A DNA stretch of 350 nt from the NCBI RefSeq assembly GCF_003334765.1, contig NZ_QOWT01000131.1; one strand, 5' to 3'. The number at the start of each line of letters is the position of its first letter. The stretch's first letter is position 1. Of the stretch, positions 1 through 348 are shown piece by piece. The translations under genes were made by a program, and so were the position numbers. The DNA comes from Escherichia coli (GTDB lineage Bacteria; Pseudomonadota; Gammaproteobacteria; Enterobacterales; Enterobacteriaceae). The notes below the pieces were generated by a model. The model made no database searches. It was given only the letters and a program-made list of their open reading frames with translations, and was not told the origin of the DNA.

Positions 1-348
1 CGGGAATGGCTGATTCTGAACATGGCGGGACTGGAGCGTGAAGAATTCCGGGTGCTGTATCTGAATAACCAGAATCAGCTGATTGCCGGTGAAACCCTCT
101 TCACCGGCACCATCAACCGCACGGAAGTCCATCCCCGGGAGGTGATTAAACGCGCCCTGCACCACAATGCCGCTGCCGTGGTGCTGGCACACAATCACCC
201 GTCCGGTGAAGTCACACCCAGCAAGGCAGACCGCCTTATCACGGAACGTCTGGTACAGGCACTGGGCCTGGTGGATATCCGGGTACCGGACCATCTGATA
301 GTCGGTGGCAGCCAGGTTTTCTCCTTTGCGGAACACGGTCTGCTTTAA
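1..348 (+). CDS. yeeS: RadC-like JAB/MPN+ (JAMM) domain protein, UPF0758 family (YeeS/YkfG/YfjY-like); 5'-partial, C-terminal ~115 codons plus stop
   Basis: Seen in sequence: frame +1 has no stop from nt 1 to the TAA at 346..348 (nt 1..21 read R-E-W-L-I-L-N before the first Met at 22). The translation contains the JAMM signature [14 protein letters not shown] and a C-terminal ...[24 protein letters not shown] typical of RadC-like proteins. CTG-rich codon usage fits Enterobacteriaceae. Established knowledge: the H-x-H-x7-S-x2-D motif defines the JAB/MPN+ metalloenzyme fold. The symbol yeeS is from recalled similarity to the E. coli cryptic-prophage paralogs; I cannot separate yeeS from ykfG or yfjY without an alignment, so read the symbol as family-level. 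Confidence 0.88.
85..108. repeat. Perfect 9-bp inverted repeat (gccggtgaa / ttcaccggc) with a 6-nt spacer (accctc); potential stem-loop within the coding region
   Basis: Read directly: 85..93 gccggtgaa; 100..108 ttcaccggc is its exact reverse complement. It lies in frame over codons A-G-E-T-L-F-T-G. Its existence is certain; any function is unknown. Confidence 0.5.
190..231 (+). other. JAMM/MPN+ metal-binding motif H-x-H-x(7)-S-x(2)-D (predicted Zn2+ ligands His57, His59, Asp70, numbered from the Met at nt 22)
   Basis: Codons 190..192 CAC (H), 196..198 CAC (H), 220..222 AGC (S), 229..231 GAC (D), giving [14 protein letters not shown]. Spacing matches the canonical JAMM signature exactly. Candidate upstream glutamates (E35 or E40 in RTEVHPRE) could supply the catalytic Glu, but which one cannot be decided without a structural alignment. 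Confidence 0.85.

Follow-up and report, generated by a model that had tools for sequence, protein, structure and literature searches.

The window analysed here, a stretch of 350 nucleotides of Escherichia coli DNA, carries the 3' part of a single gene. Frame 1 on the plus strand is uninterrupted from base 1 to a TAA stop at positions 346-348, and positions 1-348 correspond to codons 44-158 and the stop of a 477-bp gene for a RadC-like JAB-domain protein of the yeeS type. In the E. coli chromosomes that match at 100%, the 350-mer equals bases 130-477 of the 477-bp coding sequence together with two bases past the stop, which is the 3' 73% of the gene; the 5' 129 bases lie outside the window. The assignment of positions 1-345 (plus strand) to residues 44-158 of the 158-aa protein is supported by the open frame, by the annotated CDS, by the Pfam match PF04002 and by a pN/pS of about 0.05, and in all matching genomes examined the annotated CDS ends with the TAA at 346-348 (plus strand). 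In D8, TUM9803, FDAARGOS_1261 and AR13438 the product is WP_001186181.1, with 158 residues, and in complete E. coli chromosomes the matching gene is annotated either as "JAB domain-containing protein" or as "RadC family protein". Three ORFs of 20-43 aa in other frames are without support and overlap the strongly constrained coding frame. An RNA element in the window was rejected as well, since an Rfam search of both strands with E values up to 10 returned three chance-level matches to eukaryotic and Pseudomonas families, all far under the gathering scores.

Family searches used all 158 residues of the protein, as encoded in a genome that matches the window at 100%. The protein matches the Pfam RadC family (PF04002) with an E value of 7.3e-45 over model positions 2-121 of 121, scores 149.1 bits against TIGR00608, which is above the cut-off of 133.85, and matches the solved RadC homologue in PDB entry 2qlc with an E value of 1.8e-25. 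With canonical RadC/YicR it shares the JAB domain, as a full-length PF04002 match, and the HNHPSG..PS.AD block. Canonical RadC/YicR, however, has a helix-hairpin-helix (HhH) N-terminus and a core-genome location, whereas the 158-aa protein is missing the HhH region and its gene resides on mobile islands. Consistent with this difference, the score against NF000642, the equivalog model for canonical RadC/YicR, was 161 bits as compared with a cut-off of 180, and the match covered only profile positions 88-211 of 212.

In JAMM enzymes, a Glu residue and a His/His/Asp set hold the zinc and the attacking water, and a Ser residue stabilises the intermediate. Translation of positions 190-231 (plus strand) gives the JAMM/MPN+ motif H107-N-H109-P-S-G-E-V-T-P-S117-K-A-D120 (HxHx7Sx2D), which contains the residues predicted to act in zinc binding and catalysis. 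Glu57, the acidic residue that precedes this block in the motif, is encoded by GAA at 40-42 (plus strand). In an alignment of six homologues, which includes YeeS, YkfG, YfjY/LfgB, the E. albertii copy and the homologue from pOXA-48, E57, H107, H109, S117 and D120 are all invariant, and the block HNHPSG(E/D)..PS.AD is also kept in 2qlc. As read from the translation, the JAMM zinc-site motif E...HxHx7Sx2D is complete in the protein encoded by the window. By analogy with other JAMM enzymes, Glu57, His107, His109 and Asp120 would form the site for the zinc and the attacking water, with Ser117 stabilising the intermediate, and the protein would be a single-domain zinc metallohydrolase. One residue distinguishes the window allele. 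Codon 160-162 (plus strand) reads CAC for His97, the sole amino-acid change as compared with the commonest yeeS-type protein (TAC, Tyr), and the other eight yeeS-type alleles have Tyr at this position. The window differs from the YL03 allele at the CP4-44 site by one base, and this base falls in the same codon. Because the same His is present in YkfG and in the pOXA-48 homologue, the protein probably tolerates the Tyr to His97 change, which might have come in from another subtype.

The three K-12 paralogues ykfG, yeeS and yfjY had been described in the first-pass annotation as near-identical copies of this gene, a common assumption that the comparison corrects. Only yeeS is close to the window, with 96.9% identity in DNA (11 mismatches over the whole window) and 99% in protein. 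The other two are only about 75-77% identical in DNA: 76.9% in DNA and 82% in protein for ykfG, and 75.4% and 72%, respectively, for yfjY. Published protein identities among the three K-12 regions range from 65 to 84% (PMC5371832). YkfG, encoded in CP4-6, and YfjY/LfgB, encoded in CP4-57, have the same domain, length class and JAMM residues as the window protein, and their genes are likewise flanked by an antirestriction gene on one side and a DUF987 gene on the other. Unlike the yeeS type, both are missed by megablast, and by these identities they are a separate subtype that has diverged from it. The 13 other yeeS-type copies that we retrieved are 94.3-100% identical to the window in DNA. The high-identity repeats are therefore not the K-12 trio but the several yeeS-type copies in island-rich genomes, as in strain 536, which has five.

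To quantify the abundance of the yeeS type, 5,426 complete E. coli genomes were searched by megablast with the 350-base window as the query. The search, which according to a local control detects yeeS-type copies only and leaves the diverged ykfG and yfjY types out of the counts, located 12,910 places. These are spread over 4,797 genomes, each of which has up to 13 (median 3). Nearly all of these places are chromosomal. The best place in each record had at least 99% identity in 57 records and 95-99% identity in 4,690. The exact 350-mer was found in 12 listed complete E. coli records, each of which holds 2-8 places; a single unique hit, which would have spoken against a multi-copy family, was thus never seen in a candidate source genome. 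Two or more copies with over 90% identity in one chromosome were confirmed directly in 536, from which five were retrieved, and in AR13438, from which two of three were retrieved. These counts bear out the earlier assignment of the window to a multi-copy paralogue family, and the yeeS-type gene is a dispersed repeat carried on several islands per genome. A dispersed island repeat of this sort is already familiar, and the K-12 trio, the RadC-like JAB domain and the island module have all been documented. What the present analysis contributes to this familiar kind of repeat are its own measurements, namely the copy-number census, the mismatch between allele and locus and the recombination signal described below.

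How similar are the copies within one genome? The similarity search gave the best place per record, and the further copies in 536 and AR13438 were traced by walking along the conserved gene order. E. coli 536 has five copies, located in PAI III at thrW, at the CP4-44 site by tmaR/sbmC, in PAI V at pheV/kps, in PAI I at selC and in PAI II at leuX. Over the stretch equivalent to the window they differ pairwise by 6-17 substitutions per 350 bases, which corresponds to 95.1-98.3% identity, and the longest exact run that they share in the window region is 244 bases. The modules around them in 536 can be aligned over 3.2-5.4 kb; identity there is 88-94%, and the exact runs measure 83-432 bases. AR13438 carries the exact window allele beside kps and a second copy at selC that differs by 20 bases, these being two of its three copies; its CP4-44, leuX and thrW sites were probed and showed no JAB module. 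Within-genome copies in these two strains are thus about 94-98% identical over the window-equivalent stretch. Among the copies compared in 536 and AR13438 none were identical over the 350 bases, a result that concerns these two genomes. Since no two of the examined copies are identical over this length, the full 350-base fragment can be placed in these two strains. The earlier statement that a 350-bp fragment cannot be placed at a specific locus therefore holds for the sequence taken by itself, the allele being found at differing loci, but it does not hold once the complete genome is available and the 6-17 differences in 536, or the 20 in AR13438, can be read. Pieces of short-read length can be ambiguous in their placement, and tangles will arise in k-mer graphs. 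A short read or k-mer derived from the gene can end up on the wrong island, and at the 3-5 kb module an assembly from short reads will probably break or become tangled. These are matters of practical caution for mapping and assembly, not of biological novelty.

A repeat of this kind also raises the question of whether the window itself could be an assembly artefact, that is, a consensus of collapsed paralogues that is absent from any real genome. The family is repetitive enough for such a collapse, given the exact runs of up to 244 bases in the window region and 432 bases in the module. The exact 350-mer, however, occurs in 12 independently assembled complete genomes, which effectively refutes an assembly chimera, and the gene context was consistent in all five genomes examined. 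We give the artefact practically no credence.

We then compared the position of each allele with its sequence. The window allele was found with no mismatch beside the kps capsule cluster (the pheV island) in D8, TUM9803, FDAARGOS_1261 and AR13438, and again with no mismatch in SCU-301, where the island lies by yjhU-yjhI in the leuX region. An allele with one mismatch sits at the CP4-44 site of YL03, and one with two mismatches sits in the thrW island of 536. Copies that occupy the same site in different strains are less alike, with 14 differences between D8 and 536 at kps, 9 between SCU-301 and 536 at leuX, and 10-11 among YL03, K-12 and 536 at CP4-44. In other words, the closest allele pairs are not those that share a site, and between strains same-site copies show 9-14 base differences. 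The SCU-301 copy departs from the kps-site copies in the N-terminal part of its protein and in its upstream antirestriction gene. The allele does not identify the island, and the locus is unreadable from the fragment without its genome. As a consequence, an allele of this gene is unusable as a marker of a particular island or integration site.

The gene is embedded in a module that stands near one end of tRNA-associated E. coli genomic islands, with the order GTPase, Ag43, DUF905, DUF932, antirestriction protein, JAB, DUF987, CbeA antitoxin, CbtA toxin, DUF5983, DUF957 and DUF4942. The island sites found to carry the module are thrW, the CP4-44 site, pheV/kps, selC and leuX. The immediate synteny, with the antirestriction gene upstream and DUF987, cbeA and cbtA downstream, was seen in five of the five exact-350-mer genomes examined and in all five copies of 536. 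On the downstream side, DUF987 followed by the type IV toxin-antitoxin pair CbeA/CbtA was present in all islands examined. On the upstream side, the DUF932 and antirestriction genes precede JAB in every island examined except CP4-44 of K-12, where yeeR is found in their place. Because these upstream genes are absent there, unlike in the other yeeS-type modules examined, the K-12 yeeS copy is a rearranged version of the module. K-12 YeeS (b2002, CP4-44) therefore resembles the window gene in sequence and in the genes downstream (yeeT/DUF987, cbeA, cbtA and yeeW), whereas it differs in what precedes it and in being 5'-truncated. The truncated yeeS measures 447 bp as compared with 477 bp and overlaps the end of yeeR (L004 6780-8755). 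The two also differ in location, as the exact window allele in the five genomes examined is at kps/pheV or leuX and not at CP4-44. In the leuX island of SCU-301, cbeA has an internal stop and cbtA is truncated, while the adjacent JAB gene is intact and equal to the window over 350 bases (L006 9801-10336); decay of the toxin-antitoxin pair therefore need not involve the JAB gene.

The suggestion that such paralogues serve as substrates for recombination between islands is supported, the module being a mosaic. In a sliding-window comparison, copies at four loci show 98-100% identity over the window and just beyond it on either side, whereas identity falls to 57-90% in adjacent 100-base blocks. 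The mosaic structure was quantified on an alignment of eight copies over 3.5 kb with 285 informative sites. The four-gamete test was failed by 49% of all informative site pairs in this alignment, and the PHI-like statistic was 0.327 versus 0.492 +/- 0.006, with none of 1000 permutations as low. Compatibility was much higher between neighbouring than between distant sites. Inside the window, 26 of the 66 pairs among 12 informative sites were incompatible. For the D8 copy, the nearest relative switches every 200-400 bases among copies of different loci. The JAB gene is among the best conserved parts of this otherwise mosaic module. These results support exchange between module copies, within or between cells, and the signal fits gene conversion in one cell, recombination with imported DNA or the acquisition of already mosaic islands alike.

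The last point matters for a different account, in which related islands were acquired independently at different tRNA sites and no exchange took place between copies inside a genome. Each island does sit at its own tRNA site, with its own integrase where an integrase was seen (leuX), and occupancy is strain-dependent, as illustrated by the CP4-44, leuX and thrW sites of AR13438, which are without the JAB module. In 536, moreover, there is no identical pair of copies (6-17 differences per 350 bases) and the modules are only 88-94% identical; because identical pairs are lacking there, recent homogenisation within 536 is not seen. Against purely independent acquisition stand the fine-scale mosaic, with nearest relatives switching across loci every 200-400 bases, and the identical or near-identical 350-mers at four loci. 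A mosaic together with identical or near-identical alleles at four loci means that exchange between module copies, within or between cells, was needed at some stage. Independent acquisition without exchange inside a genome is, in our judgement, a possible account but a somewhat doubtful one, and exchange between copies is retained as the reading of the mosaic.

The nine distinct alleles differ from one another almost only at synonymous positions. Over all allele pairs the differences add up to 312 synonymous and 46 non-synonymous ones, which gives the pN/pS of about 0.05; although synonymous divergence is as high as 0.17, the 115-residue segment differs by only 0-3 residues. Because the allele differences are almost all synonymous, every copy is under strong purifying selection. 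This result bears directly on the view that the gene is a cryptic-prophage relic in decay, without present function. Such a view would be in keeping with the K-12 annotation, which places the paralogues in the "cryptic prophages" CP4-6, CP4-44 and CP4-57, with the 5' truncation of K-12 yeeS, and with neighbours that are sometimes broken, as are the cbeA and cbtA genes of SCU-301 and the DUF5983 genes found as fragments. The gene itself, however, has an intact frame and a complete catalytic motif, its protein is nearly invariant over 115 residues at a pN/pS of about 0.05, and it is virtually absent from 50,697 phage records. A phenotype has also been reported for deletion of the paralogue yfjY (PMC10846083). 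We consider the relic reading very improbable, and the pseudogene reading was rejected on the pN/pS over the nine alleles. Since purifying selection acts on each copy, genes that carry the "cryptic prophage" label here are not junk.

The label "cryptic prophage" is itself weak for this gene. Only one of the 50,697 phage records matches the window, an unannotated entry of 3.2 kb, whereas a protein search found homologues in 2,319 plasmid records, 1,648 of which are typed as conjugative. Because the gene is near-absent from phage records and its homologues are common on conjugative plasmids, the gene behaves as cargo of integrative or conjugative elements and not as a phage gene. The sole matching "phage" record, OR844783.1 (Escherichia phage ECO111 5-P), is 96.6% identical at positions 587-936 and is probably a fragment of the island module rather than a phage genome. 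Related JAB genes do occur in some phages, judging from the match of the JAB protein to PHROG phrog_10276 (E=3e-36). PADLOC anti-phage defence models gave no match for the JAB protein or for three of its neighbours.

Beyond E. coli, a scan of species-representative genomes with a conserved 22-mer yielded 10 loci, none of them from the E. coli representative. Homologues with about 75-77% identity were found in Enterobacter, Citrobacter, Hafnia, Cedecea and others, and the copy in E. albertii is 97.7% identical. Enterobacter sp. Bisph1 has two JAB copies on separate contigs, about 75-76% identical to the window (L010 2151-2492 and L011 12316-12646); multi-copy carriage therefore extends beyond Escherichia. 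Among the plasmid homologues, the JAB protein of pOXA-48 (IncL/M) has 53% protein identity and retains all catalytic residues. In the pOXA-48-type plasmid NZ_CP085864.1, the JAB gene (L027 6917-7366) has DUF4942, Hha-like and antirestriction genes nearby, so that the JAB neighbourhood of this conjugative carbapenemase plasmid echoes the chromosomal island module. JAB genes of conjugative plasmids differ from the window gene in having about 75% DNA identity over part of the window, in being plasmid-borne and in lacking an adjacent CbtA/CbeA pair.

Taken as a whole, the window is, with high confidence, best explained as part of a yeeS-type RadC-like JAB gene in a conserved island module, hence a dispersed repeat, with the zinc metallohydrolase activity as a putative component of this explanation. 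The JAB gene would be expressed within an operon together with the antirestriction and toxin-antitoxin genes. For the CP4-57 paralogue, the operon yfjXY-ypjJ-yfjZF has been described (PMC10846083). The same study renamed YfjY as LfgB and reported that the protein breaks down the antitoxin MqsA as well as casein and protects cells against peroxide, acid and heat (PMC10846083). The authors themselves pointed to very poor solubility, overnight incubation and contaminating proteases that were not strictly excluded (PMC10846083). By their own account the protease evidence is weak, and it concerns a 72%-identical paralogue and not the window protein, to which a protease activity could be extended only by analogy.

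Could the protein act on nucleic acids or nucleotides instead, as a nuclease or processing enzyme that aids an incoming mobile element? Iyer, Aravind and colleagues proposed such a role for RadC-type JAB domains, citing fusions to HhH, ArdC-N, primase and DinG-like helicase domains and the missing groove for a ubiquitin tail, and they recorded these domains in conjugative elements (PMC3239186, PMC5512222). The position of the JAB gene directly after the antirestriction and DUF932 genes and the frequency of homologues on conjugative plasmids point in the same direction. On the other hand, the only experimental report on a close paralogue, that on LfgB, describes a protease activity, and the window protein has no N-terminal HhH region, with a match to NF000642 limited to positions 88-211 and, at 161 bits, below the cut-off of 180. 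A role on nucleic acids is in our view a real candidate, although one that we think less than probable. A further idea combines the purifying selection on every copy with the antirestriction neighbour, as is found on conjugative plasmids. On these grounds the JAB protein may be an element-autonomous establishment or counter-defence factor, and not a host stress protease or a relic; it could, for example, cleave a host immune or regulatory protein as the island enters a cell or is activated in it. We offer this only tentatively and regard it as unlikely.

The sites inspected in the course of this work gave several further observations on the islands. In AR13438, the CP4-44 site by tmaR has no island and contains an intact cob-pdu (propanediol) operon (L029 17412-41221). 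In 536 (L021 33458-34070) and YL03 (L009 11349-11961), only a short EutP/PduV remnant is found beside the island. Since the operon is intact in the island-free AR13438 and only a remnant is left in the other two strains, the CP4-44-type island appears to have replaced most of the pdu operon. At the thrW site of AR13438 lies an element about 13 kb long (L035 23634-36468) with genes for an integrase and a major capsid protein, few other recognisable phage genes and no JAB module; it looks like a phage satellite. At leuX, the same strain has a type I restriction-modification system, a TIR-domain protein, restriction endonucleases and AAA ATPases (L032 1-14778 and L033 41184-45000), a defence-type island in place of the JAB-bearing pathogenicity island. 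Finally, at about 1.932 Mb of the AR13438 chromosome (NZ_CP097170.1), a copy of an IS110-family element joins dusC, located at about 2.23 Mb in K-12, to aqpZ, located at about 0.915 Mb (L028 2478-3503). The direct junction of dusC and aqpZ, with which the position of sbmC fits, implies that roughly 1.3 Mb of the chromosome is inverted in AR13438.
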